A stretch of DNA of 64,000 nt from Candidatus Oxydemutatoraceae bacterium (lineage in GTDB: Bacteria > Pseudomonadota > Gammaproteobacteria > Poriferisulfidales > Oxydemutatoraceae): positions 1,362,163-1,426,162 of the forward strand of contig OZ243040.1 of NCBI GenBank assembly GCA_965211995.1, given 5' to 3'. How positions within the stretch are numbered: the stretch's first letter is position 1; the number at the start of each line of letters is the position of its first letter. This document shows positions 35,015 through 64,000 of this stretch, in pieces. Made by a program: the position numbers and the translations under genes. Below the pieces are notes generated by a model, which saw only the letters and a program-made list of their open reading frames with translations, made no database searches and was not told the DNA's origin.

Positions 35015-35281
35015 ATGAAAGGCAAGCGATACAGCACAGAGAAAATCATAGGCATACTCAAGGAGTATGAAGCTGGCATACCGGTGCAGGATGTCGTCCG
35101 CAAGCATGGTATCGCCAACGGCACGTTTTATCGGTGGAAATCGAAGTACGGCGGCATGGAGGTGTCGGAAGCAAAGCGGTTACGGGAACTGGAATCGGAA
35201 AACGCGAAGTTGAAGCGACTGCTGGCGGATACGTTGCTGGACAAGACCGCACTTGAGGACGTACTCGGAAAAAAGTGGTGA
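35015..35281 (+). CDS. IS3-family transposase OrfA
   Basis: HTH (RKHGIANGTFYRWKSKYGG) and LESENAKLKRLLA zipper. Confidence 0.95.
   Translation: MKGKRYSTEKIIGILKEYEAGIPVQDVVRKHGIANGTFYRWKSKYGGMEVSEAKRLRELESENAKLKRLLADTLLDKTALEDVLGKKW
35269..35275 (+). other. -1 programmed frameshift site (A6G)
   Basis: AAAAAAG at the orfA/orfB overlap; orfB is in the -1 frame. Confidence 0.8.
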
Positions 35282-36093
35282 GGCCGACGCAGCGACGCGG
35301 CGCCGTCGTGTATCTGCAGTCGGCCTATCGCATGAGTCAACGCAGGGCGTGCCGGCTGGCGCTGCTCAGCCGCAAAGCGGCTGCTTACCAAGCCGTTGCA
35401 CGCAATGACGGGGCACTAAAAAAGCGGCTCAAGGAACTGGCTGAACGCTACCCGCGATACGGGTATCTGATGCTGCACGCATTGCTCAAGGCCGAGGGCC
35501 TGGTGGTCAATCGCAAACGCACCTATCGCCTGTATACAGCGCTCGGTATGCAACTCAGAACCCGGCGGCGTAAGAAACTGGTTCGGCCTCGGGTCCCGAT
35601 GGCTTTACCTGCCCAAGTGAACGAACGTTGGTCATTGGACTTTGTGCACGACCAATTGGCGGATGGCCGGCGTATCCGGGTACTCAACGTTATTGATGAC
35701 TTCTCCCGGAAATGTGTTGGCCAACTGGTTGACACGTCCATCTCCGGCGCTCGTCTGGCTCGGTATCTGGATGAACTCGCCCTGACCCGCTCACTGCCTG
35801 CCTCGCTCGTGCTGGACAATGGCCCGGAACTGACCAGCAAAGCTATGTTCTTCTGGGCACACAAAACCAAAGTAAAACTCTGCTTCATTCAGCCGGGGAA
35901 ACCCACTCAGAATGCTTATGTTGAGAGCTTCAACGGACGCTTCCGTGACGGCTGCCTGAATCAACATTGGTTTAGGTCGCTCAATGATGCCAGGCAGATC
36001 ATTAACGACTGGCGACATCACTACAACAATGTACGACCGCACAGCTCACTAGGCTATCGGGCACCAACCGTGTTCGAAGCAGAGGCTGCATGA
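35275..36093 (+). CDS. IS3-family transposase OrfB (DDE)
   Basis: WSLDF, DNGPE, PGKPTQNAYVESFNG. Confidence 0.95.
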   Translation: MVRPTQRRGAVVYLQSAYRMSQRRACRLALLSRKAAAYQAVARNDGALKKRLKELAERYPRYGYLMLHALLKAEGLVVNRKRTYRLYTALGMQLRTRRRKKLVRPRVPMALPAQVNERWSLDFVHDQLADGRRIRVLNVIDDFSRKCVGQLVDTSISGARLARYLDELALTRSLPASLVLDNGPELTSKAMFFWAHKTKVKLCFIQPGKPTQNAYVESFNGRFRDGCLNQHWFRSLNDARQIINDWRHHYNNVRPHSSLGYRAPTVFEAEAA

Positions 36094-36393: not shown

Positions 36394-39300
36394 TCAGTCG
36401 CGGGCGGTCGCCGGCCGCGGCGTGCGCCGCCGCCGACCGTAAGGGAGCGCGCCGAGGAGCAGCAGGAGCAGCCATACCGGATCCATGGCACCGCCACCAC
36501 CGCCACTGGTCGGATCCGGATCCGGATCCGGCGTCTCCTCATCCTCGGTGAACACGACCAATGCAACCGGGTCGTGAATAACGCCGTTCGCCGTCAGATC
36601 GGCGTCGTTTACCTGGACGTCGTTTACACCGCCGTCCTGGATCTGCAGCAACAGACATTCGTCGCCCGTGCGCACGCCGGCGGTTGCCGCCAAATACCAC
36701 GCGTGAGCGTCCCGGTTGAAAGCCTCGTCGTCGGGCTGCCGCGATGCACTGATCGCAGGACACGGCTTCGGTGCGCTGTACACCCTGTCGGTATTCGTTT
36801 GAATAAACTCACTCCATTCCAGACCGGCGGCGGTGGTGTCGCGGAATTTGTGCACCAACCAAGTCTGGCCCGTGATCACCGTCGCCGGCGCGAGCAGCGG
36901 TATCACTACGGTGACTACGTCGCCGTCCTCCATGCCGCTGACGGCGTAATCAAATACGCCGGTCGCCGTGTTCAGCGTCCCGATCAGGTCTCCTCTGTTC
37001 GGCACCTCCTGATTGATGCCGAGCGTGCCGAGCGCGGCGCTACGCAGCGCCGCCGAGAAATCTTCACTGCTGTCCGCACCCGCACCTTGCACCCGCGCGG
37101 CGGCCTGAGCGTAGCCGCCCAGGGCCAGGGTCAAATCGGACTGGATCGGCGGGCCGGACATCCGCAGCGCCATCTGCTGCGCCATCTGCTGCGCCTCATC
37201 CGGGTCCGGGTCGCGTGCCTCACCGTTCCTGTATGCCTGCAACAGGCGTCTGTTGACTTCATTTTCATCGGCGTGGTCGTCCGGCACGCCATCGTTATCG
37301 CCGTCGACTTCATCCGTCACGACGATGACCCTGAATTCGCCTTCGACCGTTGCCCCCGGCGTGGATACCGCCCTGACCTCGATGGTCTCACCGGCGATGC
37401 CGTCAATGGCCGCGGCGACGTCGCGCAAATTGACAGGCGATGATGCAGCCGCCATCGCCAGATCCCCAATATCTATCGGCGGGGAGAATCTATTGGGGCC
37501 GGCGGCATCAGTGCCGTATTTTCTGACACTGATCGTAAATTCGGCCGCTCCCGTGACATTGAATATCGGGAAAGCAGTCGCTACGTCGGCGACGTTCAGA
37601 GGCAGACTCGTCGGCTGACTTGCCGTCTGATCCGTGAAGAAGTTGAACTCTGCCTCGTCCGGGCGGCCATATACCGACACCATCACGGCGGCGTTGCCCA
37701 GCGCAAACAATCGCTGCCCCGTGAGATCGCCGGCCGTTAAACCTCCTATCTCGTTCGTGTTGCTCGCGCCGGAGAATATGAAGTCGTTCACGCTCTCTAT
37801 AACCACTGCCCCCGTTGAATCTGCTGCGGGCAGCGAGACGCCCACCGCCTGCAACGAACCTCTTTGAGGGTGGTCCTCATTGAATCCGGCGGGGGCAACA
37901 TCCTCTGCGTCTCCATCTCCCACCGTTATGGAGAAAGTGCTTACCTCGACAGGAGCGCCCATATCGTCCAATGAAGCGGCAACCGAGATTGGCAGATCAA
38001 CGTTCTGCGTCCCCGTCTCCCGCACGACCAGTGCCTCGACGTCAAATCCCACCGGCGGTGCGACATAGATGTACCTGATCGCCCTGACCCTGACGTCGGG
38101 GTCGGGGTCGGAACTGAACCCTTCCCACAGCACCCGGGTGGTGAATGAGTTGATGGACGTCGGCCGCAGATCCAACGGCGAACATCCAACGGCTGCCGAG
38201 TCGCCTTCGATAATCGCCATTGCACAGGCGGGCGTGTACTCGTAGGCAATCAGATTGTCGCCGCACTCTGCACACGTCGCCACAGCCGGATTTATCCGGG
38301 TCATCGCGGCTTTTCCGGGGACCAGGATGTAGGGCGACGGCACGCCATCCCCCACCGCACCTGGTGCGAGATTCTCCCCATTGATGCTGATCGCCACCGA
38401 CGACGACACCATCACACCTACTGTGTCAACAGCGGACAAGGGGGTCGTGGAATGCATGTCGGTCACGGTCAACTGGAACGTCAGGTCCGTGTTCATCGCC
38501 ACATTGGGCGCCGTGAACATGGGCTGCGCGGCCGTGGGGTCATCCAGCGCCACGACGGGTGTGCCAATCTGCTCCCACTCGAAACTCAGCGGCTGACCCT
38601 CCGGATCTCTTGAGCGGCTGCCGTCCAGTATCACGGTCGCGCCTTGAGCCACCATGTCATCGCTGACATCAGCCAGGGCCGTTGGCGTGTCGTTCACCGC
38701 GATCACGGTGACCATCACCGTGTCGTTGTCGGACGAATTCCGTGCGTCGCTCACCGTCAACTGGAACATCAATTCTGCGTCCTCGACCAGCAGATCGGGC
38801 GCTATGAACGTAGTCTGCGCGGCCGTGGGGTCATCCAGATCCACGGTGGGCGTGCCATCCGTCTGCGTCCATGCGTAACTCAGCGTCTCGCCCTCCGGAT
38901 CAGCGCCGCTGCCTTCCAGCGTCACCATATCTCCCTCGCCCACGATCAGATCGTCGCCCGCGTCCACTGTCGGCGCGTCGTTCGCCCCGGCGACCACGGT
39001 GATGTCTATCGTGGCAACGCCGGTCAAGCCCGGAGTCCCTCCGTCGGTCACCGTCAACTGGAACGTCAATACCACATCCATAACCAGTTGAGGGGGCGCC
39101 GTGAACATGGGCTGCGCGGCCGTGGGGTTATCCAGCGCCACGGTTGTGCCGTCCGTCTGTGTCCATGCGTAACTCAGCGCGCCCTCCGGATCGCTTGAGC
39201 CGCTGCCGTCCAGCGTCACGGGCGTGCCTTCATTCACACTTGCCGGCGCATTGATCACCGCCGTCGGCGCATCGTTCTCCCCGGTGATCGTGATGGTCAC

Positions 39301-54300: not shown

Positions 54301-57300
54301 GTCATCCACCGCCACCGGCGCGTCGTTTATTGGTCTGATCTCAATAGTCACCGTCGCCACGTTGGTGCTGTCCAACTCGCCGTCGTTCACCCGGTAGGTG
54401 AAACTGTCCGACGTCGTCTCGCTGCCGTCGTGCTGATAACTGAATGTCCCGTCCAAAGCCAGCGTAAACGCCCCCCCCTCGTGGCGGGCCGGCCCATTCT
54501 CCAGTCTGGCGGTTAAACCGCTCCGATCCGTATCCGCATCCGTGTCGTTGGCCAGCACGCTCGTCTCACCGCCCTCCAGCACCGTCGCCGTGCCGTCCTC
54601 GTCCACCGTGATCGTGTCATCCACCGCCACCGGCGGGTCGTTCACCCCGATCACCGTCACCGTCACCGTCCCCGTCGTGTTCGCCGCCGCCTGCACCACG
54701 AACTCCTCATCCGGAGCATCATTCGTATTCAGCGCGTCCGTTCTCGTACTTGCGTCGTCCAGTTCATACGTCCATACATCACCCGTGATCGAAAGCGTCC
54801 CATACGTCCCGATGCCGTCCTCCCCTGCCGCCAGACCAAACGACACAGCCGACGCCTCCACGTTCACCGCCCGCAACACCCCCGTCGCCGTCGCCGACTC
54901 CGACTCCGCGACATCCCCCGACGCCTCCATCACAGTCCCGCTCAATATCCCCCCGACCACCGCCACCGAGTCCGGCCCCGACGCGATCACCTCCACATTC
55001 ACCTCGTCTCTCCCGACCCCATCCCGTGCGTCGGTCACCGCCAACTCGAACGTCAACGTCACGTCCCCGCTCAACCCCGTCGGCGCCGTGAACGTCGCAT
55101 CCTCGCTATCATCATCAGTCAACACCACGTTGTTGCCCGTGACGTCCGTCTGCCTCCAACTGAAAGTTGTCAACTCGTCGCCATCCGGATCCGTCGCGCT
55201 GCCGCTCAGCGTCACACTATCCCCCTCACCCACGATCTGATCCTCGCCCGCGTTCACCACCGGCACGTTGTTAGTGTCCGCCTCCACCGTCACCGCCACC
55301 GGGGATGCCTCATCCGTCTCCTCGTCGTCTCTCACTATCAAACTCAACGTCACATCCCCCTCATCCGCCGGCGCCGTCCACGTCGTCACCACAGCCTCCA
55401 TATCGTTGAACGTGCCCACGGCTGAACCGTCCGCGTCCACCGCGCTCCACAGGTAGGTCAATGTGTCCCCGGTGTCCACGTCGCTGCTGCCGCTGCCGTC
55501 CAACTCCACCGTCGTGCCGCCTACCACCGTCAGTGCGCCGCCCGCTTCCACGGTTGTCCCGTTCGCCTGCGCGGTGAACGCCGCCGTCGGCGCGTCGTTC
55601 GCGCCGGTCACCGTGATCACCACCGTCGCCGACACATCAAAGCGACCGCCGTCGCCGAACTGCGCCGACACCCCGAATTCATCGTTCACTTCATCGCCTG
55701 CGCCCAACCCCTGCACCGCAGTACTCCTGTTGTCCAGCACGTAGATCCATTCCGCTGCATTGCCGGATGTCCCGGGAGCGAACGTCCCATATTGACCGTC
55801 CTGCTCACTCACCGTGAATTGCGCATCCCTAATATCTTCACCGCTCTCATCCGCAAGACTCAGAAAGCCTCCTACCTCCAGAACATCGTCCTCCGTGACA
55901 AACCCCGTTGTACCAAAGAACATGACCGTCGGGGCCTGCGCCTCCATCACCGCGATGGTGTACCTCACGGTCGCCACGTCGTCGTCAAAATCCCTCACCC
56001 TGTGTATGTAGTTGGTCTCAACCTGCACCGACCTCGCAGTGCCTCCCAAAACCGGGGAAAAACCGAAAGCGCCGCTGCCGCCGTCAAACTCCAATCCGTC
56101 CGGCAGACCGCCTCCCCCCTCCGCCTCGAACGAGTAAGTCAAACTCGAGTTGCCGCTGATCGCCGTCTCCAGGTTTTGGGCGACTGCATCGCCCACCGTG
56201 TAAATCAAAGCGCGGTTCGCAACAAGATCGAAAGCCGCCTCGGCGTCCACCAGCACCCTCGCCTCCGTGGTCGCACTGGCAACCCCGTCACTCACCGTCA
56301 GCATCAAGGTCACCCCCGCTCCCCTCACCCGCGTCGGCGCCGTCCACTGCGTATTCGCCTCGCTGGGTCGGGTGAAAACATTCGCGCCCAGATCGTCCGG
56401 GATCACGCTCCACTCGTAGGTCAACTCAGCGCCGGCGTCCACGTCGTCGCCGCTGCCGACCAGGTCCACCGCCGCACCCCCCGTCACCGTGCTGTCCGCC
56501 GCCACGGTTATCCCATTCACCTGCACGATGAACGCCGCCGTCGGCGCGTCGTTCGCGCCTATCACCGTGATCGCCACCTCCGCCGTCGCCCCCGCCGCCG
56601 TCACCCCGAACGTGTCCGTCCCGCTGCTGCCCTGCGCCAGTGCGTTGGTCTCATCGGCGCCGTTGTCCAGCGTGTAAGTCCACAGACCGTCCGCATTAAT
56701 GCTGAACGTCCCATACGTGCCGGGACTCTCACCCTGCACATCAAAGTCAACGTCCGGACTGACCGTCAACTGCCCCGTCGCCATATTCCGGCCCACATCG
56801 TCCTCGACCACCGTCCCCGTCACCGTGCCGCTGATCTCCGGCGTCACCGGCGCCGCCTGCACCGTCACCTCCGCCGTCGCCTCATCCGTCCTCCCCTCGG
56901 GGAGTTCGTCGTCGCTCACCGTCAATGTCAACACCACATTCCCCGCAACATCCGGCGCCCTCCACGTCGTATCCGCAATCTCCGCATTGCCGAAACCGCC
57001 CGCATCGCCGCCGCCCGTGCGCGCCGCACTCCACGCATAAGTCAATACGGCGTCCTCGTCGTCCACGTCAGATCCCATCCCCTCCAAACTCACCTCCTCC
57101 CCGACCGTCACCGTCGCCGGCGGATCCACAATCTCCGCCACCGGCGCGTCGTTCGCCCCCGTCACCGTGATCACCACCTCGCCCTCCGTGTCGTCCGCCG
57201 CCGTCACCGTGAACTCGTCCACCTGTGTGTCGCCCGCCCCCAGCGCTTCGGTGTCCGGGTCACCGTTGTCCAGCACGTACTCCCAATTCCCGTTGGCTTC

Positions 57301-60300
57301 AAGAGTGAACGTCCCATACACCCCCTCCACCGACGCCCCCGCCGGCGCATTGACCTCCACCGCATTCACCAAATCGCCGCTCGCCGCCACCGATGCGATG
57401 CGGTTCTCCCCGTCCACGTCGCTTACTGTCACCACCACCGTCGCCGTCGCCGTCGTGCGATCATCATCGTCCTCGGTCACCTCCCCGGTGAGATCCCCGC
57501 TGAACACCGCCGGGTCGTTCGCTCCGGTCACCGTGATCTCCACCTCCGCCTCAGCGCCGTCCGTCGTCGTCACCCTGAACACGTCGTCCGCCGTGACGCC
57601 CGCCCCCAGCCTGTTCGTCTCCACCCCGCCGTTGTCCAGCACGTACTCCCATCTCCCGTTGGCTTCAAGAGTGAACCTCCCGTACGTGCCGAGACTATCA
57701 GGCTGCGCCTCAAACCCAGCGCCCGTAGCCGCCGTGTTGACCGTCACCGTCCCCGTCGCCGTTGTCGCCTGCGCGTCGTCCTCGGTCACCGCCCCGGCGA
57801 GATTCCCGCTGATACTGCTTGCCTGCACCGTGACCGTCACCTCCGCCTGACCCGTCGCGCCGTCCCCGTCCCTCACCATCAACATGAACACCAGATCCGT
57901 GTCCCCGTCCACCGGCGGCGCCGTGAACACCAGCATGTTGCCCGTGTTAATGTCGGTGAGATCCACCCCCGTCCCCTGCAGCGTCCACACGAACGTCAGC
58001 AATGTGCTGTCCGTATCGCTTGAACCGCTACCGTCCAGCGTCACCTCCGCGCCCTCCAACACGGGGGGCGTGGTCACCAACCTCGCCACCGCCACCGGCG
58101 CGTCGTTTATTGGTCCGATATCAATAGTCACCGTCGCCACGTCGGCGCTGTCCAACTCGCCGTCGTTCACCCGGTAGGTGAAACTGTCCGACCGCGGCGT
58201 CTCGCTGCCGTCGTGGGTATAACTGAATGTCCCGTCCGAATTCAGACTAAATGGCACGGCGTGGTCCGGCCCACTCACCAACTCGGCGATTAAATCGCTC
58301 CGATCCGTATCCGCATCCGTGTCGTTGTCCAGCACGCTCGTCTCACCGCTATCCAGCGCCGTCGCCGTGCCGCCCTCGTCCACCGTGATCGCGTCATCCA
58401 CCGCCACCGGCGCGTCGTTTATTGGTCTGATCTCAATAGTCACCGTCGCCACGTTGGTGCTGTCCAACTCGCCGTCGTTCACCCGGTAGGTGAAACTGTC
58501 CGACGTCGTCTCGCTGCCGTCGTGCTGATAACTGAATGTCCCGTCCAAAGCCAGCGTAAACGCCCCCCCCTCGTGGCGGGCCGGCCCATTCTCCAGTCTG
58601 GCGGTTAAACCGCTCCGATCCGTATCCGCATCCGTGTCGTTGGCCAGCACGCTCGTCTCACCGCCCTCCAGCACCGTCGCCGTGCCGTCCTCGTCCACCG
58701 TGATCGTGTCATCCACCGCCACCGGCGGGTCGTTCACCCCGATCACCGTCACCGTCACCGTCCCCGTCGTGTTCGCCGCCGCCTGCACCACGAACTCCTC
58801 ATCCGGAGCATCATTCGTATTCAGCGCGTCCGTTCTCGTACTTGCGTCGTCCAGTTCATACGTCCATACATCACCCGTGATCGAAAGCGTCCCATACGTC
58901 CCGATGCCGTCCTCCCCTGCCGCCAGACCAAACGACACAGCCGACGCCTCCACGTTCACCGCCCGCAACACCCCCGTCGCCGTCGCCGACTCCGACTCCG
59001 CGACATCCCCCGACGCCTCCATCACAGTCCCGCTCAATATCCCCCCGACCACCGCCACCGAGTCCGGCCCCGACGCGATCACCTCCACATTCACCTCGTC
59101 TCTCCCGACCCCATCCCGTGCGTCGGTCACCGCCAACTCGAACGTCAACGTCACGTCCCCGCTCAACCCCGTCGGCGCCGTGAACGTCGCATCCTCGCTA
59201 TCATCATCAGTCAACACCACGTTGTTGCCCGTGACGTCCGTCTGCCTCCAACTGAAAGTTGTCAACTCATCGCCATCCGGATCCGTCGCGCTGCCGCTCA
59301 GCGTCACACTATCCCCCTCGCCCACGATCTGATCCTCGCCCGCGTTCACCACCGGCACGTTGTTAGTGTCCGCCTCCACCGTCACCGCCACCGCCGTCGA
59401 ATCCGACAGCCCGTCCAACCCCTGCTCGGTCACCGTCAACATGAATGTCAACACCTCGTCATCAACCAGCCCCGACGGCGCCGTGAACGTCAGCTGCTGC
59501 ACGTTGGTGACGACATCAGACAAAACCTCGCCCGGGCCGACCGTCTGAACCCACTCGAACGTCAACGTATCGCCCTCCGGATCGCTCGAACCGCTCCCGT
59601 CCAGTGTCACCACAGCCCTCGCGGCCGCGGTCGTCGGGCTCGCCACCGCCACCGCCGTTGGCGTGTCGTTTATTGGTCTGATATCAATAGTCACCGTCGC
59701 CACGTTGGTGCTGTCCAACTCGCCGTCGTTCACCCGGTAGGTGAAACTGTCCGACGTCGTCTCGCTGCCGTCGTGCTGATAACTGAATGTCCCGTCCAAA
59801 GCCAGCGTAAACGCCCCCCCCTCGTGGCGGGCCGGCCCATTCTCCAGTCTGGCGGTTAAATCGCTCCGATCCGTATCCACATCCGTGTCGTTGTCCAGCA
59901 CGCTCGTCTCACCGCTATCCAGCGCCGTCGCCGTGCCGCCCTCGTCCACCGCGATCCTGTCATCCACCGCCACCGGCGCGTCGTTTATTGGTCTGATCTC
60001 AATAGTCACCGTCGCCACGTTGGTGCTGTCCAACTCGCCGTCGTTCACCCGGTAGGTGAAACTGTCCGACGTCGTCTCGCTGCCGTCGTGCTGATAACTG
60101 AATGTCCCGTCCAAAGCCAGCGTAAACGCCCCCCCCTCGTGGCGGGCCGGCCCATTCTCCAGTCTGGCGGTTAAACCGCTCCGATCCGTATCCGCATCCG
60201 TGTCGTTGGCCAGCACGCTCGTCTCACCGCCCTCCAGCACCGTCGCCGTGCCGTCCTCGTCCACCGTGATCGTGTCATCCACCGCCACCGGCGGGTCGTT

Positions 60301-63300
60301 CACCCCGATCACCGTCACCGTCACCGTCCCCGTCGTGTTCGCCGCCGCCTGCACCACGAACTCCTCATCCGGAGCATCATTCGTATTCAGCGCGTCCGTT
60401 CTCGTACTTGCGTCGTCCAGTTCATACGTCCATACATCACCCGTGATCGAAAGCGTCCCATACGTCCCGATGCCGTCCTCCCCTGCCGCCAGACCAAACG
60501 ACACAGCCGACGCCTCCACGTTCACCGCCCGCAACACCCCCGTCGCCGTCGCCGACTCCGACTCCGCGACATCCCCCGACGCCTCCATCACAGTCCCGCT
60601 CAATATCCCCCCGACCACCGCCACCGAGTCCGGCCCCGACGCGATCACCTCCACATTCACCTCGTCTCTCCCGACCCCATCCCGTGCGTCGGTCACCGCC
60701 AACTCGAACGTCAACGTCACGTCCCCGCTCAACCCCGTCGGCGCCGTGAACGTCGCATCCTCGCTATCATCATCAGTCAACACCACGTTGTTGCCCGTGA
60801 CGTCCGTCTGCCTCCAACTGAAAGTTGTCAACTCGTCGCCATCCGGATCCGTCGCGCTGCCGCTCAGCGTCACACTATCCCCCTCACCCACGATCTGATC
60901 CTCGCCCGCGTTCACCACCGGCACGTTGTTAGTGTCCGCCTCCACCGTCACCGCCACCGGGGATGCCTCATCCGTCTCCTCGTCGTCTCTCACTATCAAA
61001 CTCAACGTCACATCCCCCTCATCCGCCGGCGCCGTCCACGTCGTCACCACAGCCTCCATATCGTTGAACGTGCCCACGGCTGAACCGTCCGCGTCCACCG
61101 CGCTCCACAGGTAGGTCAATGTGTCCCCGGTGTCCACGTCGCTGCTGCCGCTGCCGTCCAACTCCACCGTCGTGCCGCCTACCACCGTCAGTGCGCCGCC
61201 CGCTTCCACGGTTGTCCCGTTCGCCTGCGCGGTGAACGCCGCCGTCGGCGCGTCGTTCGCGCCGGTCACCGTGATCACCACCGTCGCCGACACATCAAAG
61301 CGACCGCCGTCGCCGAACTGCGCCGACACCCCGAATTCATCGTTCACTTCATCGCCTGCGCCCAACCCCTGCACCGCAGTACTCCTGTTGTCCAGCACGT
61401 AGATCCATTCCGCTGCATTGCCGGATGTCCCGGGAGCGAACGTCCCATATTGACCGTCCTGCTCACTCACCGTGAATTGCGCATCCCTAATATCTTCACC
61501 GCTCTCATCCGCAAGACTCAGAAAGCCTCCTACCTCCAGAACATCGTCCTCCGTGACAAACCCCGTTGTACCAAAGAACATGACCGTCGGGGCCTGCGCC
61601 TCCATCACCGCGATGGTGTACCTCACGGTCGCCACGTCGTCGTCAAAATCCCTCACCCTGTGTATGTAGTTGGTCTCAACCTGCACCGACCTCGCAGTGC
61701 CTCCCAAAACCGGGGAAAAACCGAAAGCGCCGCTGCCGCCGTCAAACTCCAATCCGTCCGGCAGACCGCCTCCCCCCTCCGCCTCGAACGAGTAAGTCAA
61801 ACTCGAGTTGCCGCTGATCGCCGTCTCCAGGTTTTGGGCGACTGCATCGCCCACCGTGTAAATCAAAGCGCGGTTCGCAACAAGATCGAAAGCCGCCTCG
61901 GCGTCCACCAGCACCCTCGCCTCCGTGGTCGCACTGGCAACCCCGTCACTCACCGTCAGCATCAAGGTCACCCCCGCTCCCCTCACCCGCGTCGGCGCCG
62001 TCCACTGCGTATTCGCCTCGCTGGGTCGGGTGAAAACATTCGCGCCCAGATCGTCCGGGGTCACGCTCCACTCGTAGGTCAACTCAGCGCCGGCGTCCAC
62101 GTCGTCGCCGCTGCCGACCAGGTCCACCGCCGCACCCCCCGTCACCGTGCTGTCCGCCGCCACGGTTATCCCATTCACCTGCACGATGAACGCCGCCGTC
62201 GGCGCGTCGTTCGCGCCTATCACCGTGATCGCCACCTCCGCCGTCGCCCCCGCCGCCGTCACCCCGAACGTGTCCGTCCCGCTGCTGCCCTGCGCCAGTG
62301 CGTTGGTCTCATCGGCGCCGTTGTCCAGCGTGTAAGTCCACAGACCGTCCGCATTAATGCTGAACGTCCCATACGTGCCGGGACTCTCACCCTGCACATC
62401 AAAGTCAACGTCCGGACTGACCGTCAACTGCCCCGTCGCCATATTCCGGCCCACATCGTCCTCGACCACCGTCCCCGTCACCGTGCCGCTGATCTCCGGC
62501 GTCACCGGCGCCGCCTGCACCGTCACCTCCGCCGTCGCCTCATCCGTCCTCCCCTCGGGGAGTTCGTCGTCGCTCACCGTCAATGTCAACACCACATTCC
62601 CCGCAACATCCGGCGCCCTCCACGTCGTATCCGCAATCTCCGCATTGCCGAAACCGCCCGCATCGCCGCCGCCCGTGCGCGCCGCACTCCACGCATAAGT
62701 CAATACGGCGTCCTCGTCGTCCACGTCAGATCCCATCCCCTCCAAACTCACCTCCTCCCCGACCGTCACCGTCGCCGGCGGATCCACAATCTCCGCCACC
62801 GGCGCGTCGTTCGCCCCCGTCACCGTGATCACCACCTCGCCCTCCGTGTCGTCCGCCGCCGTCACCGTGAACTCGTCCACCTGTGTGTCGCCCGCCCCCA
62901 GCGCTTCGGTGTCCGGGTCACCGTTGTCCAGCACGTACTCCCAATTCCCGTTGGCTTCAAGAGTGAACGTCCCATACACCCCCTCCACCGACGCCCCCGC
63001 CGGCGCATTGACCTCCACCGCATTCACCAAATCGCCGCTCGCCGCCACCGATGCGATGCGGTTCTCCCCGTCCACGTCGCTTACTGTCACCACCACCGTC
63101 GCCGTCGCCGTCGTGCGATCATCATCGTCCTCGGTCACCTCCCCGGTGAGATCCCCGCTGAACACCGCCGGGTCGTTCGCTCCGGTCACCGTGATCTCCA
63201 CCTCCGCCTCAGCGCCGTCCGTCGTCGTCACCCTGAACACGTCGTCCGCCGTGACGCCCGCCCCCAGCCTGTTCGTCTCCACCCCGCCGTTGTCCAGCAC

Positions 63301-64000
63301 GTACTCCCATCTCCCGTTGGCTTCAAGAGTGAACCTCCCGTACGTGCCGAGACTATCAGGCTGCGCCTCAAACCCAGCGCCCGTAGCCGCCGTGTTGACC
63401 GTCACCGTCCCCGTCGCCGTTGTCGCCTGCGCGTCGTCCTCGGTCACCGCCCCGGCGAGATTCCCGCTGATACTGCTTGCCTGCACCGTGACCGTCACCT
63501 CCGCCTGACCCGTCGCGCCGTCCCCGTCCCTCACCATCAACATGAACACCAGATCCGTGTCCCCGTCCACCGGCGGCGCCGTGAACACCAGCATGTTGCC
63601 CGTGTTAATGTCGGTGAGATCCACCCCCGTCCCCTGCAGCGTCCACACGAACGTCAGCAATGTGCTGTCCGTATCGCTTGAACCGCTACCGTCCAGCGTC
63701 ACCTCCGCGCCCTCCAACACGGGGGGCGTGGTCACCAACCTCGCCACCGCCACCGGCGCGTCGTTTATTGGTCCGATATCAATAGTCACCGTCGCCACGT
63801 CGGCGCTGTCCAACTCGCCGTCGTTCACCCGGTAGGTGAAACTGTCCGACCGCGGCGTCTCGCTGCCGTCGTGGGTATAACTGAATGTCCCGTCCGAATT
63901 CAGACTAAATGGCACGGCGTGGTCCGGCCCACTCACCAACTCGGCGATTAAATCGCTCCGATCCGTATCCACATCCGTGTCGTTGTCCAGCACGCTCGTC
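36394..64000 (-). CDS. Giant repetitive surface protein/adhesin (VCBS, PKD-like, cadherin/Ig-like repeats) with C-terminal GlyGly-CTERM; 5' end lies beyond the window
   Basis: Single frame of >9,199 codons, open to the window edge. Repeats YGTFxxxxxGxWxYxLDN...ITVTGANDAP, VNAGEDQIV...FTAP and DGTFSYxHDGSE...DSFTY. C-terminus SGGGGGAMDPVWLLLLLLGALPYGRRRR. Confidence 0.93.
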   Translation of the reverse strand, partial: TSVLDNDTDVDTDRSDLIAELVSGPDHAVPFSLNSDGTFSYTHDGSETPRSDSFTYRVNDGELDSADVATVTIDIGPINDAPVAVARLVTTPPVLEGAEVTLDGSGSSDTDSTLLTFVWTLQGTGVDLTDINTGNMLVFTAPPVDGDTDLVFMLMVRDGDGATGQAEVTVTVQASSISGNLAGAVTEDDAQATTATGTVTVNTAATGAGFEAQPDSLGTYGRFTLEANGRWEYVLDNGGVETNRLGAGVTADDVFRVTTTDGAEAEVEITVTGANDPAVFSGDLTGEVTEDDDDRTTATATVVVTVSDVDGENRIASVAASGDLVNAVEVNAPAGASVEGVYGTFTLEANGNWEYVLDNGDPDTEALGAGDTQVDEFTVTAADDTEGEVVITVTGANDAPVAEIVDPPATVTVGEEVSLEGMGSDVDDEDAVLTYAWSAARTGGGDAGGFGNAEIADTTWRAPDVAGNVVLTLTVSDDELPEGRTDEATAEVTVQAAPVTPEISGTVTGTVVEDDVGRNMATGQLTVSPDVDFDVQGESPGTYGTFSINADGLWTYTLDNGADETNALAQGSSGTDTFGVTAAGATAEVAITVIGANDAPTAAFIVQVNGITVAADSTVTGGAAVDLVGSGDDVDAGAELTYEWSVTPDDLGANVFTRPSEANTQWTAPTRVRGAGVTLMLTVSDGVASATTEARVLVDAEAAFDLVANRALIYTVGDAVAQNLETAISGNSSLTYSFEAEGGGGLPDGLEFDGGSGAFGFSPVLGGTARSVQVETNYIHRVRDFDDDVATVRYTIAVMEAQAPTVMFFGTTGFVTEDDVLEVGGFLSLADESGEDIRDAQFTVSEQDGQYGTFAPGTSGNAAEWIYVLDNRSTAVQGLGAGDEVNDEFGVSAQFGDGGRFDVSATVVITVTGANDAPTAAFTAQANGTTVEAGGALTVVGGTTVELDGSGSSDVDTGDTLTYLWSAVDADGSAVGTFNDMEAVVTTWTAPADEGDVTLSLIVRDDEETDEASPVAVTVEADTNNVPVVNAGEDQIVGEGDSVTLSGSATDPDGDELTTFSWRQTDVTGNNVVLTDDDSEDATFTAPTGLSGDVTLTFELAVTDARDGVGRDEVNVEVIASGPDSVAVVGGILSGTVMEASGDVAESESATATGVLRAVNVEASAVSFGLAAGEDGIGTYGTLSITGDVWTYELDDASTRTDALNTNDAPDEEFVVQAAANTTGTVTVTVIGVNDPPVAVDDTITVDEDGTATVLEGGETSVLANDTDADTDRSGLTARLENGPARHEGGAFTLALDGTFSYQHDGSETTSDSFTYRVNDGELDSTNVATVTIEIRPINDAPVAVDDRIAVDEGGTATALDSGETSVLDNDTDVDTDRSDLTARLENGPARHEGGAFTLALDGTFSYQHDGSETTSDSFTYRVNDGELDSTNVATVTIDIRPINDTPTAVAVASPTTAAARAVVTLDGSGSSDPEGDTLTFEWVQTVGPGEVLSDVVTNVQQLTFTAPSGLVDDEVLTFMLTVTEQGLDGLSDSTAVAVTVEADTNNVPVVNAGEDQIVGEGDSVTLSGSATDPDGDELTTFSWRQTDVTGNNVVLTDDDSEDATFTAPTGLSGDVTLTFELAVTDARDGVGRDEVNVEVIASGPDSVAVVGGILSGTVMEASGDVAESESATATGVLRAVNVEASAVSFGLAAGEDGIGTYGTLSITGDVWTYELDDASTRTDALNTNDAPDEEFVVQAAANTTGTVTVTVIGVNDPPVAVDDTITVDEDGTATVLEGGETSVLANDTDADTDRSGLTARLENGPARHEGGAFTLALDGTFSYQHDGSETTSDSFTYRVNDGELDSTNVATVTIEIRPINDAPVAVDDAITVDEGGTATALDSGETSVLDNDTDADTDRSDLIAELVSGPDHAVPFSLNSDGTFSYTHDGSETPRSDSFTYRVNDGELDSADVATVTIDIGPINDAPVAVARLVTTPPVLEGAEVTLDGSGSSDTDSTLLTFVWTLQGTGVDLTDINTGNMLVFTAPPVDGDTDLVFMLMVRDGDGATGQAEVTVTVQASSISGNLAGAVTEDDAQATTATGTVTVNTAATGAGFEAQPDSLGTYGRFTLEANGRWEYVLDNGGVETNRLGAGVTADDVFRVTTTDGAEAEVEITVTGANDPAVFSGDLTGEVTEDDDDRTTATATVVVTVSDVDGENRIASVAASGDLVNAVEVNAPAGASVEGVYGTFTLEANGNWEYVLDNGDPDTEALGAGDTQVDEFTVTAADDTEGEVVITVTGANDAPVAEIVDPPATVTVGEEVSLEGMGSDVDDEDAVLTYAWSAARTGGGDAGGFGNAEIADTTWRAPDVAGNVVLTLTVSDDELPEGRTDEATAEVTVQAAPVTPEISGTVTGTVVEDDVGRNMATGQLTVSPDVDFDVQGESPGTYGTFSINADGLWTYTLDNGADETNALAQGSSGTDTFGVTAAGATAEVAITVIGANDAPTAAFIVQVNGITVAADSTVTGGAAVDLVGSGDDVDAGAELTYEWSVIPDDLGANVFTRPSEANTQWTAPTRVRGAGVTLMLTVSDGVASATTEARVLVDAEAAFDLVANRALIYTVGDAVAQNLETAISGNSSLTYSFEAEGGGGLPDGLEFDGGSGAFGFSPVLGGTARSVQVETNYIHRVRDFDDDVATVRYTIAVMEAQAPTVMFFGTTGFVTEDDVLEVGGFLSLADESGEDIRDAQFTVSEQDGQYGTFAPGTSGNAAEWIYVLDNRSTAVQGLGAGDEVNDEFGVSAQFGDGGRFDVSATVVITVTGANDAPTAAFTAQANGTTVEAGGALTVVGGTTVELDGSGSSDVDTGDTLTYLWSAVDADGSAVGTFNDMEAVVTTWTAPADEGDVTLSLIVRDDEETDEASPVAVTVEADTNNVPVVNAGEDQIVGEGDSVTLSGSATDPDGDELTTFSWRQTDVTGNNVVLTDDDSEDATFTAPTGLSGDVTLTFELAVTDARDGVGRDEVNVEVIASGPDSVAVVGGILSGTVMEASGDVAESESATATGVLRAVNVEASAVSFGLAAGEDGIGTYGTLSITGDVWTYELDDASTRTDALNTNDAPDEEFVVQAAANTTGTVTVTVIGVNDPPVAVDDTITVDEDGTATVLEGGETSVLANDTDADTDRSGLTARLENGPARHEGGAFTLALDGTFSYQHDGSETTSDSFTYRVNDGELDSTNVATVTIEIRPINDAPVAVDDRIAVDEGGTATALDSGETSVLDNDTDVDTDRSDLTARLENGPARHEGGAFTLALDGTFSYQHDGSETTSDSFTYRVNDGELDSTNVATVTIDIRPINDTPTAVAVASPTTAAARAVVTLDGSGSSDPEGDTLTFEWVQTVGPGEVLSDVVTNVQQLTFTAPSGLVDDEVLTFMLTVTEQGLDGLSDSTAVAVTVEADTNNVPVVNAGEDQIVGEGDSVTLSGSATDPDGDELTTFSWRQTDVTGNNVVLTDDDSEDATFTAPTGLSGDVTLTFELAVTDARDGVGRDEVNVEVIASGPDSVAVVGGILSGTVMEASGDVAESESATATGVLRAVNVEASAVSFGLAAGEDGIGTYGTLSITGDVWTYELDDASTRTDALNTNDDPDEEFVVQAAANTTGTVTVTVIGVNDPPVAVDDTITVDEDGTATVLEGGETSVLANDTDADTDRSGLTARLENGPARHEGGAFTLALDGTFSYQHDGSETTSDSFTYRVNDGELDSTNVATVTIEIRPINDAPVAVDDAITVDEGGTATALDSGETSVLDNDTDVDTDRSDLIAELVSGPDHAVPFSLNSDGTFSYTHDGSETPRSDSFTYRVNDGELDSADVATVTIDIGPINDAPVAVARLVTTPPVLEGAEVTLDGSGSSDTDSTLLTFVWTLQGTGVDLTDINTGNMLVFTAPPVDGDTDLVFMLMVRDGDGATGQAEVTVTVQASSISGNLAGAVTEDDAQATTATGTVTVNTAATGAGFEAQPDSLGTYGRFTLEANGRWEYVLDNGGVETNRLGAGVTADDVFRVTTTDGAEAEVTITVTGANDPAVFSGDLTGEVTEDDDDRTTATATVTVTVSDVDGENRIASVAASGDLVNAVEVNALAGPASVAGVYGMLEIDANGLWTYTLDNGDPDTEALGAGDTQVDEFTVTAADDTEGEVVITVTGANDAPVAEIVDPPVTVTFGQVVSLDGTGSDVDDAVGTLTYEWSAARAGGGDAGGFGNVGSEDTTWTAPGEAGAVTLTLTVSDGEETDEATAEVTVQAAAVTPEISGTVTGTVVEDVGPDMVTGQLTIVGGSGVFTMQERTTLTYGCFTLNTDGEWTYSLLNMSTRTDALGEGDSVEDVFTAMAELTGGGGTLTADVRITVEGTNDAAVFAGVPQGAVFEDAEQTMATGVLTVSDVDGEDVITMVAASGDLGNVEDVDALAASSVEGTYGTLEITALGTWTYTLDNDNENTDALNVDTMPVPVDEFTVTAMDGTTAAVSVMVFGANDAVDFSGSDLSGEVVEAGAGVDGTDEASGTLTVNDVDSVGTTSVGTAARTEVYGVFTLVEDGGSVTEWMYALDNDREVTNALAQGSSVTDTLTVAADDGTQATVVITIIGANDAPTAVAVASPTTAAARAVVTLDGSGSSDPEDDALTFEWDQTGGPGEVLSDVVTNVQQLTFTAPSGLVDDEVLTFMLMVTEQGLDGLSDSTAVAVTVEADTNNVPVVNAGEDQIVGEGDSVTLSGSATDPDGDELTTFSWEQPGGTVVGLSDAAAEQPTFTAPSNGEETLTFRLTVTDARNGVGRDEVDVEVIASGSDPVVGGILSGTVMEASGDVAESATATGVLRAVNVEASAVLFGLADGEEDGIGTYGTLSITDNVWTYQLDDTREATNALDENDRPNDEFVVQAAANTTGTVTVTVIGVNDPPVAEDDTITVDEDGTATVLEGGETSVLANDTDAEGDDLTAELVTLPTHHAGAFTLALDGTFSYVHDGSEEATDSFTYMVNDGELDSTNVATVTIEIRPINDAPVAVDDRIAVDEGGTATALDSGETSVLDNDTDADTDRSGLTAELVSGPAHAMPFSLNSDGTFSYTHDGSETPRSDSFTYMVNDGELDSADVATVTIDIGPINDAPVAVIADPPDDVLEGDEVTLDGSGSSDADNDSLTFEWALPPGTGMNLTGIDTSQPTLMFTAPPVDGDTDLVFMLTVTDGDGATGQAEVTVTVQASSIGGNLAGAVTEDDAQATTATGTVSVNTEATGAGFEAQPDSLGLYGTFTLEANGRWEYVLDNGRVETNRLGAGATADDVFRVMTTDGAEADVTITVTGANDPAVFSGDLTGEVTEDDDDRTTATATVTVTVSDVDGGNRIASVAASGDLGNAVEVAAPARASVEGVYGMLEIDADGLWTYTLDNINLDTEALGAGDTQVDEFTVTAADDTEGEVVITVTGANDAPVAEIVDPPATVTVGEEVSLEGMGSDVDDEDAVLTYAWSAARTGGGDAGGFGNAEIADTTWRAPDVAGNVVLTLTVSDDELPEGRTDEATAEVTVQAAPVTPEISGTVTGTVVEDVGPDMVTGQLTIVGGSGVFTMRERTTLTYGCFTLNTDGEWTYSLLNMSTRTDALGEGDSVEDVFTAMAELNDGGGTLTADVRITVEGTNDAAVFAGVPQGAVFEDAEQTMATGVLTVSDVDGEDVITLVAASGDEEPVVANEESSVVGTYGTLEITALGTWTYTLNNDDAETDALNEGDRPVDEFTVTAMDGTTAAVSVMVFGMNDAVDFSGSDLSGEVIEAGAEDDGTDDASGTLTVNDVDSVGTTSVETAARTEVYGVFTLVEEGGSVTGWRYALNNDRIVTNALAEGSSVTDTLTVRAQDGTQATVVITIIGANDAPTAVAVASTTTAAARAVVTLDGSGSSDPEGDALTFEWVQTDVVVGTDVSLLPNAAAERPTFTAPTGLTVDQVLTFMLTVTEQGSGGLSDATTVTVEAEADTNNVPVVNAGRDQIVGERDVVTLSGSATDPDGDELTTFSWRQTDVTGNNVMLDDDNSGGATFEAPAGLSGDVTLTFELAVTDARNGVGRDDVDVEVIASGSDPVVGGILSGTVMEASGDVAESATATGVLRAVNVDASDVLFGLADGENGIGTYGTLSITDNVWTYQLDDTREATNALDENDRPNDEFVVQAAANTTGTVTVTVIGVNDPPVAVGDRIAVDEGGTVEVLMDGMTTSVLTNDTDAEGDGLTAWLVTGPVHHMGAAFTLASSGTFSYQHDGSETTSDSFTYMVNDGELDSANVATVTITITGVNNAPQAAAAAGVETATGLVQPVYAGETVVLDGSGSSDPENDAANVSLGYEWVRTDTGTAILSLMGDTNVMATFVAPSVDTDTELEFTVTVTDSGGLTDTEVVSVNVVAVEISGEAAGVVVEDQTLSVEGALTLNARGGFEATTTTQTYGEFAVRSDGSWTYTLNNFNVVTQRLGASARVEEMYQVAAAVSDETAEVTITVGGTNDDPVAEIVNAPATVAVGQVVDLNGMGSDVDDGDSLAYVWSAEHEGGGDAGSFDDMTAEDPMWTVPGNEGNVTLTLTVNDDQTGTDEVSARVLVEALAVRGTLTGTVTEDAVTTTATGVVFLNAEGGNFAVQSNVRGTYGTFSITGAGVWTYTLDNDDEDTDALSAGAMVDDTFMVNATAASESAMATVTITVTGADDLPVFAGDTTGRVIEDTQVTAEGSLRVEDPDSDDEVEVQRTTGTYGVFVTTTATWTYTLTSGDADTEALRAGQEVNEQVFVVRAESGLTTQVMITVTGTNDAPVAVNDEFTVDEGGTVTGNVLTNDGDVDHLIPDEVTISIVFQSGPSSGTFVSVNFQTGVFTYQHNGTPTATDSFSYVVNDGDLDSNEAVVTIMVNDVNDPPVAMIAPPPIGGVPEGAMVTLDGSGSTDEETASEDLEYRWGQTSSGGMADLTGVDLDQSMLTFTAPLVDMDTNLEFTLTVMDEEGATDQATVTVRVRAGVISPDGLTGEVFEDDEARTTAAGRVMVDTTADFVPPSDASTTYGTFNLEAGGDWSYRLNNASSATDALNRGDTVIERFQVMTTDNTEASVTITVHGANDAAVFSGESTGTVTEGDDTRTAATGVLMVDDVDDDNLIASASTPGASSVSQPGDEVRSIYGTFMITAMGTWTYMLDNDRDATNALAEGMVVSDTLTVTTTDGTPGTVVITVTGANDPPVARNDAITVAEDGTATVLADGMASVLANDSDVDTAQDALMVSVVREPAEGTLRLDNDGTFSYTHDGSETPRSDSFTYEVSDGEGGTAEAMVAITITGENDPPVAVDDQFMVDEGGMVTGDVLANDTDADNNVLTATIVTLPANHRGAFTLNSNGMFSYRHDGSETTSDSFIYLADDGEGGTDEATVTIDVIPQNDAPTAQITVPDVVISGRVVSVVGTGGDEDTNLVDLTYTWSAVFEGGASAGTFVPNSDNAAQNSMWTVPSGVSVAMDVTLTLMVDDGEDSVTVEVTVTVTPVPVIAGNLEVSVSEDDASAEGSLTINNPPFGNSDFVEQTAMTAENYGTFVITAQGEWTYTLNSTVTNTLSAGTNPVDEFIVVAAGDAQTMATVEIMVIGENDAAVFSGDDTGTVTEGTEDDAGQMTATGGRMVDDVDGANMIASASTPRASSVSQPGDDVQGTYGAFVITATGAWTYRLNNDDEDTDALNVGTIPVPMDEFTVTAADGTAGTVTITVMGANDAPVAMDDSVTVVEGGTVVVEVLANDEDVDDTAPGDLTVSVMRGVMPGQGGTLTLNTDMTFSYAHDGSETTSDSFIYQVTDNGGLFDEATVTITITGENDPPTVQITVPAPEDRVVISGRTVSVSGMGTDMETLANLLIYTWSAALADGTPGDVGSFAPNDSNVAQDSMWMAPSGVSVATRVTLMLTVSDGADSATAEVEVTVTPVPMITGDLVVSVNEDDTSAERSLTIVNPPFGDNTFVVQSDVDGNYGRFEIRAQGDWTYTLNSVVTNALSAGTNPVDEFIVVAAGDDQTMAAVRITVIGENDAAVFSGDDTGTVTEGTEDDAGQMTATGGRMVDDVDGANMIASASTPRASSVSQPGDDVQGTYGAFVITATGAWTYRLNNDDEDTDALNVGAAPMDEFTVTAADGTAGTVTITVQGANDAPVAMDDAITVAEGGTATMLADGVTASVLANDSDVDTAQGGLIVSSVVREPTQGTLTLTIGGDGTFTYQHNGNEPVSENFIYEVSDGQGGTAEATVTITITGENDAPTAVINAPASVNEGTPVTLDGSGSSDPEGALSYAWTQTDGTTVALDNPTAAQPMFTAPPQLVMDVVLTFQLTVTDGGTPGLTGVATIDITVVAGANDAPTVDAGDDLIVGEGDMVTLEGSGADPEGETLSYAWTQTDGTPTVDLDDPTAAQTTFIAPDLLVEDAELMFQLTVSDARNSSDNDTVMVTVIAVNDTPTALADVSDDMVAQGATVILDGSRSRDPEGQPLSFEWEQIGTPVVALDDPTAAQPMFTAPNVAMNTDLTFQLTVTDMHSTTPLSAVDTVGVMVSSSVAISINGENLAPGAVGDGVPSPYILVPGKAAMTRINPAVATCAECGDNLIAYEYTPACAMAIIEGDSAAVGCSPLDLRPTSINSFTTRVLWEGFSSDPDPDVRVRAIRYIYVAPPVGFDVEALVVRETGTQNVDLPISVAASLDDMGAPVEVSTFSITVGDGDAEDVAPAGFNEDHPQRGSLQAVGVSLPAADSTGAVVIESVNDFIFSGASNTNEIGGLTAGDLTGQRLFALGNAAVMVSVYGRPDEAEFNFFTDQTASQPTSLPLNVADVATAFPIFNVTGAAEFTISVRKYGTDAAGPNRFSPPIDIGDLAMAAASSPVNLRDVAAAIDGIAGETIEVRAVSTPGATVEGEFRVIVVTDEVDGDNDGVPDDHADENEVNRRLLQAYRNGEARDPDPDEAQQMAQQMALRMSGPPIQSDLTLALGGYAQAAARVQGAGADSSEDFSAALRSAALGTLGINQEVPNRGDLIGTLNTATGVFDYAVSGMEDGDVVTVVIPLLAPATVITGQTWLVHKFRDTTAAGLEWSEFIQTNTDRVYSAPKPCPAISASRQPDDEAFNRDAHAWYLAATAGVRTGDECLLLQIQDGGVNDVQVNDADLTANGVIHDPVALVVFTEDEETPDPDPDPTSGGGGGAMDPVWLLLLLLGALPYGRRRRTPRPATARD
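36420..36510 (-). other. GlyGly-CTERM (rhombosortase) sorting signal
   Basis: SGGGGG + hydrophobic helix + RRRR, preceded by a PDPDPDP linker. Confidence 0.85.
39570..41340. repeat. Module repeated at a 1275-bp offset inside the giant gene
   Basis: Identical antisense ORFs at 39747 and 41022. Confidence 0.85.
45430..53000. repeat. More diverged ~3.8-kb in-frame repeat
   Basis: Similar antisense ORFs at 45608/49415 and 47285/51092 (offset 3807). Confidence 0.85.
51670..64000. repeat. Near-identical 5658-bp in-frame tandem repeat (>=2.2 copies) containing a 1566-bp sub-repeat
   Basis: Identical antisense ORFs at 52226/57884/63542 (period 5658) and 52976/54542 (period 1566). Confidence 0.95.

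Follow-up and report, generated by a model that had tools for sequence, protein, structure and literature searches.

The 64,000-nucleotide stretch analysed here (the window; contig OZ243040.1 of a Candidatus Oxydemutatoraceae bacterium, positions 1,362,163 to 1,426,162) holds the C-terminal part of a very large gene, which is real and intact. By analogy with sorted proteins of other bacteria, its product is most likely a surface fibre of immunoglobulin-like (Ig-like) repeats, processed by rhombosortase and anchored by its C-terminus. In full, our hypothesis is that the gene encodes an acidic fibre of 1.8 MDa that is exported by the Sec pathway, processed by rhombosortase, lipid-anchored at the C-terminus and carried to the surface of the cell by a type II secretion system (T2SS); we assign it a probability of roughly 0.65. 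An initial annotation of the window had proposed the rhombosortase/T2SS route for a protein ending in a GlyGly-CTERM tag: the genome context supports this proposal, whereas the curated model of the tag (TIGR03501) does not.

The frame lies on the minus strand and is open from its stop codon (window 36394-36396) to the window edge, a length of 9,201 codons (36394..64000 with the stop codon). Followed through the whole genome (G000, in which the window is C1:1362163-1426162 of a single contig of 1,943,614 bp with 0 N), it extends 24.8 kb outside the window and ends at genome position 1,450,917, giving a gene of 17,453 codons and 52.4 kb, or 2.7% of the 1.94-Mb genome. The initial annotation was right that the frame runs on past the window edge; it therefore viewed just the C-terminal 53% of the protein, and its estimate of roughly one megadalton was too low: the full product has a mass of 1.80 MDa, an isoelectric point of 4.05 and 12 Cys residues. 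By arithmetic estimate, a stop codon is expected about every 40 codons at the window's G+C content of ~64%, so that an open frame of 17,453 codons is not a matter of chance; with 52 kb free of stops, a chance frame was rejected. The four longest frames of the genome (17,453, 10,081, 6,823 and 5,307 codons) sum to 119 kb, or ~6% of its length. Over the giant gene (window 38001-64000) the GC skew of the plus strand is strongly negative, at -0.15 to -0.39 vs ~-0.05 elsewhere, because the coding strand is G-rich and the protein rich in Thr, Ala, Val, Gly and Asp.

Ig-like modules account for 15,573 of the 17,453 residues. Counted as non-overlapping matches of hidden Markov models (HMMs) built on the protein's own repeats, there are 156: 62 of VCBS/tandem-95 type, 50 PKD-like, 24 cadherin-like/Big_9, 18 He_PIG and two Calx-beta. 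Outside them lie the N-terminal 232 residues, three gaps of ~140 each and the C-terminal 666. The VCBS, PKD and cadherin-like content that the initial annotation had read from the window was recovered along the full length by Pfam and NCBIfam models, far over their cut-offs: K319L-like PKD, Cadherin_4, _5 and _3, Big_9, He_PIG, Calx-beta, Sde0182_C, VCBS (TIGR01965) and tandem-95, the cadherin-like families being PF17803, PF17892 and PF16184 and the PKD-like ones PF22352 and PF18911. Multiple matches over cut-off to TIGR01965 (419-1,001 bits per piece of ~2,700-5,000 residues) and to PF17803 (up to 735 bits) place these repeats in the VCBS/bacterial cadherin-like class. Within the window the array, traced with Pfam, NCBIfam and the self-built HMMs, occupies 39277..63999 (minus strand), and three K319L-like PKD modules (38395..39270, minus strand; Pfam and self-built HMMs) stand directly upstream of the C-terminal region; these three included, the window holds 81 modules (33 tandem-95/VCBS-type, 30 PKD-like, 16 cadherin-like/Big_9 and two He_PIG). 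The model of a rhombosortase-dependent M36 metallopeptidase, NF038111, also matches (170-338 bits; cut-off 1,700), with matches limited to its C-terminal Ig-like part.

The motifs that the initial annotation described at the C-terminus are present letter for letter: DGDNDGVPD, ECLLLQIQDGG…ANGVIHDP, a PD linker, SGGGGG, a transmembrane (TM) segment and RRRR. On the minus strand, in the direction of the protein, the modules are followed by 466 residues without a recognised family (36997..38394), which include the thrombospondin-type-3-like DGDNDGVPD (37279-37305) and gave no match in Pfam, atlas or PDB sequence searches. Then come a choice-of-anchor-U pre-anchor domain (36553..36969; ECLLLQIQDGG…ANGVIHDP), an acidic Pro/Asp-rich linker (…VVFTEDEETPDPDPDPT; 36508..36552), the SGGGGG motif (36490..36507), where rhombosortase would cleave by analogy, a Leu-rich hydrophobic segment, AMDPVWLLLLLLGALPYG (36436..36489), forming the membrane-spanning part of the putative tag, and a basic cluster, RRRRTPRPATARD (36397..36435), predicted to face the cytoplasm and followed by the stop codon. 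SGGGGG, AMDPVWLLLLLLGALPYG and RRRRTPRPATARD thus reproduce the tripartite layout that defines a GlyGly-CTERM tag, namely a Gly/Ser motif, a TM segment and a basic cluster at the extreme C-terminus (PMC6219818). The domain directly before the tag, whose likeness to choice-of-anchor U the initial annotation had pointed out, was recognised by NF041766 at 34.6 bits on the last 500 residues and at 38.2 bits on the last 200 (residues 10-148 of these; cut-off 32); a PDB sequence search found no solved relative of it. When the tail was aligned with ten others, GGGG was kept in 11/11, and two Cys (PCP…ECLLL), DGG, NDxD…NG, DP and four Gly were invariant across the 11 modules.

According to the initial annotation, the proposal would fall if rhombosortase or the T2SS were missing from the genome; since both are encoded, this objection does not apply. 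A single rhombosortase was found (TIGR03902, 135.9 bits; cut-off 84), which is the genome's sole Rhomboid-domain gene; the same model exceeded its cut-off in 0/14 control genomes. The protein carries the motifs GLSGV and AHWYG, which we take, from GlpG, to be the contexts of the catalytic Ser and His. Its gene is the last of a same-strand cluster that reads gspC, D, A-like, B-like, E, a fucosyltransferase-like gene, F, G, H, I, J, K, L, M, N, a rhodanese gene and rhombosortase; the T2SS is complete, with the prepilin peptidase encoded elsewhere in the genome. The fucosyltransferase gene, lying between gspE and gspF (L019:16670-19240, plus strand; genome 492670-495240), encodes 857 residues of FUT8/NodZ-like type, and the rhodanese-domain gene lies between gspN and rhombosortase (L020:6514-6906, plus strand; genome 502514-502906). 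Through these two genes, glycosylation or sulfur chemistry may be connected with the pathway.

GlyGly-CTERM systems show a many-to-one pairing, in which several otherwise unrelated proteins share one tag. The same pairing is found here: seven proteins of the genome (830, 940, 1,764, 1,789, 5,307, 6,823 and 17,453 codons) combine a signal peptide, choice-of-anchor U and a like tail, with the pattern GGGGG-[AVT][MI]-x-x-x-W-LL…R/K. The six members other than the giant either score 38.6-60 bits with NF041766 or contain the motif. Two of them, of 5,307 and 6,823 codons, are adjacent (G000:C1:314826-350911, plus strand); the former has an additional domain of ~130 residues between choice-of-anchor U and tag, and its frame continues for ~55 residues after the TM segment and enters the next gene's leader. 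The genome also contains a 10,081-codon frame of related VCBS/cadherin-like DNA (G000:C1:226555-256800, plus strand), which ends in …SCPIPQPQP, neither a Gly-run tail nor an end like that of repeats-in-toxin (RTX) proteins; a coiled-coil-like tandem-repeat frame adjoins it on the 3' side.

Module and protease have similar distributions among 40 relatives of the order. Rhombosortase over cut-off was found in 17 of the 18 genomes of this family vs 0/22 in three sister families, and the choice-of-anchor-U module in 12/18 vs 0/22; the family genome without a rhombosortase match (G004) is 85% complete. Because these genomes are kin, the co-distribution may reflect a single gain. In ten of the 12 family genomes in which both genes were located (the present one counted), gspC and rhombosortase lie on one strand, 14-31 kb apart, the exceptions being two genomes of genus g5; and in three relatives (G013, G016 and G006) rhombosortase has, 100-800 bp upstream and on the same strand, a cargo gene bearing the module together with the tail. 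Long tagged frames occur in other relatives as well: G009 has five, of 5,254, 5,903, 7,845, 9,164 and 19,552 codons (a signal-like N-terminus and a GGGGGA-TM-RR tail were checked on the last), G003 has one of 6,826 codons and G005 one of 7,672.

The association was also seen across the class, in a sample of 300 scored genomes (tallies were made by eye from tables). The module occurs in 41 of these genomes and rhombosortase in 95; rhombosortase exceeded its cut-off in 33 of the 41 module-positive genomes vs 62 of the 259 module-negative ones. Outside the family, genomes in which the match runs through the tail had rhombosortase in 19 of 20 cases (the exception, G336, is 79% complete), compared with 12 of 19 for matches stopping before the tail. 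A Gly run, a TM segment and a basic tail close 99 of 152 stored proteins with the module, and a simple pattern for a PEP-CTERM ending found none.

The size that the initial annotation called exceptional for this route is borne out by the canonical GlyGly-CTERM proteins of the 300 class-mates: among the listed TIGR03501 matches over cut-off (69 genomes positive, with 280 lower-scoring matches beyond) the longest frame has 4,728 codons. That frame ends in a canonical tail of 20.4 bits (G109:C4:421765-421830, minus strand), so multi-thousand-residue GlyGly-CTERM proteins also exist outside the family. A class-mate of another family has a 14,360-codon frame with the choice-of-anchor-U module (G298:C1:328078-328512, plus strand; profile positions 25-164) and no tail; rhombosortase was not found in this 1.9-Mb single-contig genome, and the protein presumably joins the same module to another anchor. 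An exhaustive profile search returned 3,072 module-bearing representatives, the longest among the best 150 being 7,842 residues; because the giant itself lies outside the best 150, the protein library cannot tell whether equally long relatives exist. Compared with proteins of 5,060-16,102 residues, the last 500 residues gave no match among 500 word-sharing candidates, which low-complexity words had probably crowded; a 200-residue C-terminal query matched six proteins, of 636-1,644 residues.

At the other end, which the initial annotation had proposed to seek beyond the window, the N-terminus resembles a signal peptide by inspection: …FIALLLLVSGTLLPFEQAAA is followed by QS, the hydrophobic region being FIALLLLVSGTLLPF and the residues before QS being AAA. 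Signal endings of the form A-x-A-Q occur in cohort proteins too. The candidate starts are ATG at codon 0 (with a weak AAGG upstream) or 4, and TTG at 55 or 60. Ahead of the predicted signal-peptidase site, codons 0-95 (L010:12633-12917, minus strand) contain two to three successive Arg-rich and hydrophobic stretches (RRSRGAFFALPALLSLALSA, RHRRFRALLPSALS and HRCFIALLLLVSG), so that the start is ambiguous or the signal region possibly an extended one. A 5' tandem duplication was considered as the source of the repeated signal-like stretches and rejected, the DNA repeats being merely trivial ones of 8-12 bp. The region after the signal gave a sub-threshold PKD-like lead in the atlas (0.88), and PDB sequence searches for the unexplained regions returned nothing usable.

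The closest guide to what these elements may do is VesB of Vibrio cholerae, in which rhombosortase cleaves after GG, a glycerophosphoethanolamine-containing moiety is added, and the T2SS is then needed to reach the surface (PMC6219818). Tag and rhombosortase bring about membrane association only; transit of the outer membrane needs a second signal, which in VesB lies in an Ig-fold domain beside the tag (PMC13393428). By analogy, the giant would be exported by Sec on its N-terminal signal peptide, after which the Leu-rich helix at its C-terminus, with the Arg cluster, would keep the chain in the inner membrane. The single rhombosortase would then cut the poly-Gly run, and the new C-terminus would gain a lipid anchor of glycerophosphoethanolamine type. 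Next, the T2SS encoded beside rhombosortase would carry the protein over the outer membrane, which is the weakest step and has VesB as its sole guide. Finally, to judge from their domain content, the ~156 Ig-like modules would project from the cell as an adhesin or spacer; because the anchor is C-terminal, the PKD-like N-terminal end would be the distal tip. The host interaction that the initial annotation had suggested is a conjecture. Choice-of-anchor U, common to all seven tagged proteins, may serve as the handle that presents the tag to rhombosortase and/or as the second, T2SS-specific secretion signal. Prediction of a complex between GspC (residues 85-302) and the pre-anchor module gave a score of 0.00, which argues neither for nor against binding.

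Several observations weigh against this hypothesis. We know of no use of the T2SS by anything near the giant's size. TIGR03501, by which the initial annotation had suggested verifying the tag, gave no match on the giant's tail at E<=10 (cut-off 15.5), and its best score in the genome, on the 1,764-codon cohort member, is 10 bits; the GlyGly-type assignment therefore rests on comparative context. The sole tail model over its own cut-off is that of another tag, MYXO-CTERM. Eight of the 41 module-positive genomes of the class lack rhombosortase over cut-off, so the choice-of-anchor-U domain alone does not imply the rhombosortase pathway. A distance of ~895 kb separates the giant gene from the T2SS/rhombosortase cluster, and no secretion genes flank the giant; its start codon is ambiguous; and the copy number of its youngest repeats depends on the assembly, as set out below. 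The Kyte-Doolittle hydropathy profile (window 19, threshold 1.6) has nine internal windows over threshold (maximum 2.06), all of them A/V/T-rich strand-like motifs within Ig repeats. Lastly, known GlyGly-CTERM cargo consists mostly of hydrolytic enzymes (PMC6219818).

The giant may be processed by rhombosortase and yet not be exported by the T2SS, in which case it would stay in the inner membrane, held by lipid or TM segment, and fill or span the periplasm, or would get outside by way of vesicles, lysis or an unknown conduit. This agrees with the need for a separate signal in outer-membrane transit, tag and rhombosortase being enough for membrane association only (PMC13393428), and with a T2SS that takes folded periplasmic proteins and for which giant-size cargo is undocumented in the available text of PMC6219818 and PMC13393428. 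However, the T2SS cluster ends with the rhombosortase gene, which is tied to gspC in ten of the 12 family genomes; a fibre of ~156 modules would far exceed the width of the periplasm; and domains of adhesin type fit an extracellular role. We regard an end point short of T2SS export as unlikely, though still a live alternative.

A further alternative concerns the nature of the tail, which could be some other sorting signal (MYXO-CTERM- or JDVT-CTERM-like, with a CPBP glutamic protease as its partner) or an uncleaved C-terminal membrane anchor. TIGR03501 fails on the tail, whereas MYXO-CTERM reaches 21.2-22.4 bits (cut-off 20; the score is 22.4 for a piece of 60 residues but 19.7 for one of 200) and JDVT-CTERM 18-23 bits (cut-off 27); the tail also contains a DP pair, as does the JDVT-CTERM helix. 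The MprA GlyGly tail model, TIGR03867, falls just short at 19.6 bits (cut-off 19.7). MYXO-, JDVT-, Synerg- and CGP-CTERM are, however, each defined by an invariant signature Cys (bioRxiv 10.1101/2023.06.07.544157). The last 45 residues of the giant contain no Cys, and the DP pair of its tail is not conserved across the cohort tails. The best NCBIfam match of the genome's sole CPBP gene (PF02517) is MrtS, with 24.5 bits (cut-off 130); neither a myxosortase nor an MrtJ model is among those listed for its product. With the defining Cys absent and no cognate protease, a tag of MYXO or JDVT type was rejected; and since, outside the family, 19 of 20 genomes with module-plus-tail also have rhombosortase, we consider any other identity of the tail, the uncleaved anchor included, improbable.

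Whether the length is authentic turns on a 5,658-bp unit of 1,886 codons that self-comparison shows to be present ~2.5 times on the minus strand. Unit U2 lies at 54013..59670; U1, at 59671..64000, is clipped by the window edge and would reach window-equivalent position 65,328; and U3, a partial third copy at 51115..54012, is near-identical to U1 and U2 over its first ~2 kb and diverged over the remainder. U1 and U2 differ at only five of 5,658 positions (99.91% identity; longest identical run 2,389 bp), so that their copy number depends on the assembly. Mis-assembled repeats could thus have made the gene too long, or it could be an unexpressed relic: an IS3-type transposase gene lies 300 bp past the stop codon, and no syntenic ortholog was found in three relatives. 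Two public runs of one study are too fragmented to bridge the units, holding the locus as contigs of <=1,450 bp, none of which spans a unit (joint sides, 20-35 bases), and bear neither for nor against the copy number. Against this alternative, collapse of U1 and U2 into one would remove 1,886 codons, at most 11% of the length, and still leave 15,567, the remaining internal repeats all being <=92% identical. No stop interrupts the 52 kb, and independently assembled relatives carry tagged frames of 5,254 to 19,552 codons. The chance that the giant is an artefact or a relic appears small.

A classical type I secretion system (T1SS) giant adhesin of LapA/BapA/MpIBP type, with its secretion signal overlooked, would have the same VCBS/cadherin-like extender and could draw on the TolC that is present (305.6 bits) and on partial, weak NF045619 (BapA/Bap/LapF) matches of up to 125.9 bits (cut-off 180), but is close to refuted and was rejected as a reading, in line with the initial annotation, which had seen neither RTX repeats nor a T1SS signal: there is no GGxGxD in any of the 17,453 residues and no HemolysinCabind family at E<=0.01 (Pfam), the N-terminus is signal-peptide-like, the C-terminus is a TM segment with an Arg tail, and the best HlyD-type adaptor match in the genome has 33.2 bits against a TIGR01843 cut-off of 208.65 (the ABC component was not searched for).

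The immediate surroundings of the gene consist of the following. The transposase gene, of the IS3 family of insertion sequences (rve_3, rve, HTH_21), occupies window 35275-36093 on the plus strand, and beyond it stand genes for isocitrate lyase, isocitrate dehydrogenase and citrate synthase. The giant's start is preceded, two genes upstream, by a full-length M48 peptidase gene, a paralogue of which is found ~1.2-1.5 kb past the end of a tail-bearing gene in two relatives of the same genus, G001 (C1:1685510-1686082, minus strand) and G003 (C1:1648672-1649352, minus strand). The giant's locus is not syntenic in G001, G003 or G009: the isocitrate lyase and M48 genes are >=115 kb apart in all three, and no orthologous locus could therefore be defined.

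Of the systems already described, the closest are the GlyGly-CTERM/rhombosortase (RssP)/T2SS proteins of Vibrio cholerae (VesB, VesA, VesC and Xds) and Shewanella (ExeM). These share with the giant a signal peptide and a C-terminal Gly motif, TM segment and basic cluster; as here, a structured domain and linker precede the tag, one rhombosortase serves several tagged proteins, and a T2SS is present. They differ in three respects: their cargo consists of hydrolases of a few hundred residues rather than a 17,453-residue Ig-repeat fibre, the tail here has a pure Gly5 run and is not recognised by TIGR03501, and rhombosortase is here the last gene of the T2SS cluster. Haft and Varghese (2011) found rhombosortase linked to no T2SS subclass (PMC3237569). 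The curated models NF038111 and NF041766 likewise describe PKD-like C-terminal regions and a pre-anchor domain that travel with C-terminal sorting tags, as in the giant, which lacks the M36 catalytic region of NF038111 and is >13x the length of that model's 1,315 positions.

The RTX/T1SS adhesins, among them LapA, SiiE and the 1.5-MDa ice-binding adhesin of Marinomonas primoryensis, resemble the giant in megadalton size, arrays of Ig-like/VCBS extenders, acidity and motifs of Ca-binding type (PMC5550230, PMC6272769). Polarity and route are nevertheless opposite: the giant has a Sec signal, a C-terminal membrane tag, no RTX and no T1SS adaptor over cut-off, and its distal tip would be the N-terminus. 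Omnitrophota have giant proteins (West-Roberts et al., bioRxiv 10.1101/2023.11.21.568195) that exceed 30,000 residues, contain numerous TM regions as well as SecA-DEAD domains, and are encoded beside T2SS-like secretion genes. With them the giant shares a very large gene in a small genome, predicted extracellular attachment domains and an implicated T2SS-like cluster, whereas it ends in one tag, shows no convincing TM helix in its interior and lies at a distance from its T2SS. In Apilactobacillus kunkeei, Giant1-5 (surface proteins of 3,000-8,000 residues) take up ~6% of a ~1.5-Mb genome (PMC12863079), a share like that of the four longest frames here (119 kb of 1.94 Mb); that host is, however, Gram-positive and anchors its proteins in another way.

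By these comparisons the giant is an outlier, in size and in class of cargo, of a known sorting system, and it would be by far the largest cargo proposed for the rhombosortase tag pathway. In the part of the matching literature that was covered, no report was found that links rhombosortase-type sorting with giant or VCBS proteins. There is a lesson here for annotation: TIGR03501 misses the tag of this lineage, which is identified instead by the pre-anchor domain and rhombosortase, and the choice-of-anchor-U domain becomes a candidate recognition element. There is also a problem of secretion, in that a 1.8-MDa C-terminally lipidated fibre would have to be delivered by the T2SS, a machine believed to push folded, compact proteins through the secretin. 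One doubtful but far-reaching answer is that, in this bacterial family, T2SS and rhombosortase work as an assembly line devoted to lipid-anchored fibres of megadalton size, in which the chain would be threaded processively via the secretin, anchor-end first, with choice-of-anchor U as the universal handle. If so, the repeated or continuous transport of a beads-on-a-string substrate of about half a micrometre would be a mode described for no T2SS, and the commitment of ~6% of the DNA in reduced genomes to such proteins would be explained. More generally, should our hypothesis of a rhombosortase-processed, C-terminally anchored surface fibre hold, rhombosortase/GlyGly-type sorting would not be confined to small secreted enzymes: it would anchor some of the largest bacterial proteins known, and a gammaproteobacterial family with small genomes would carry several such giants per genome.

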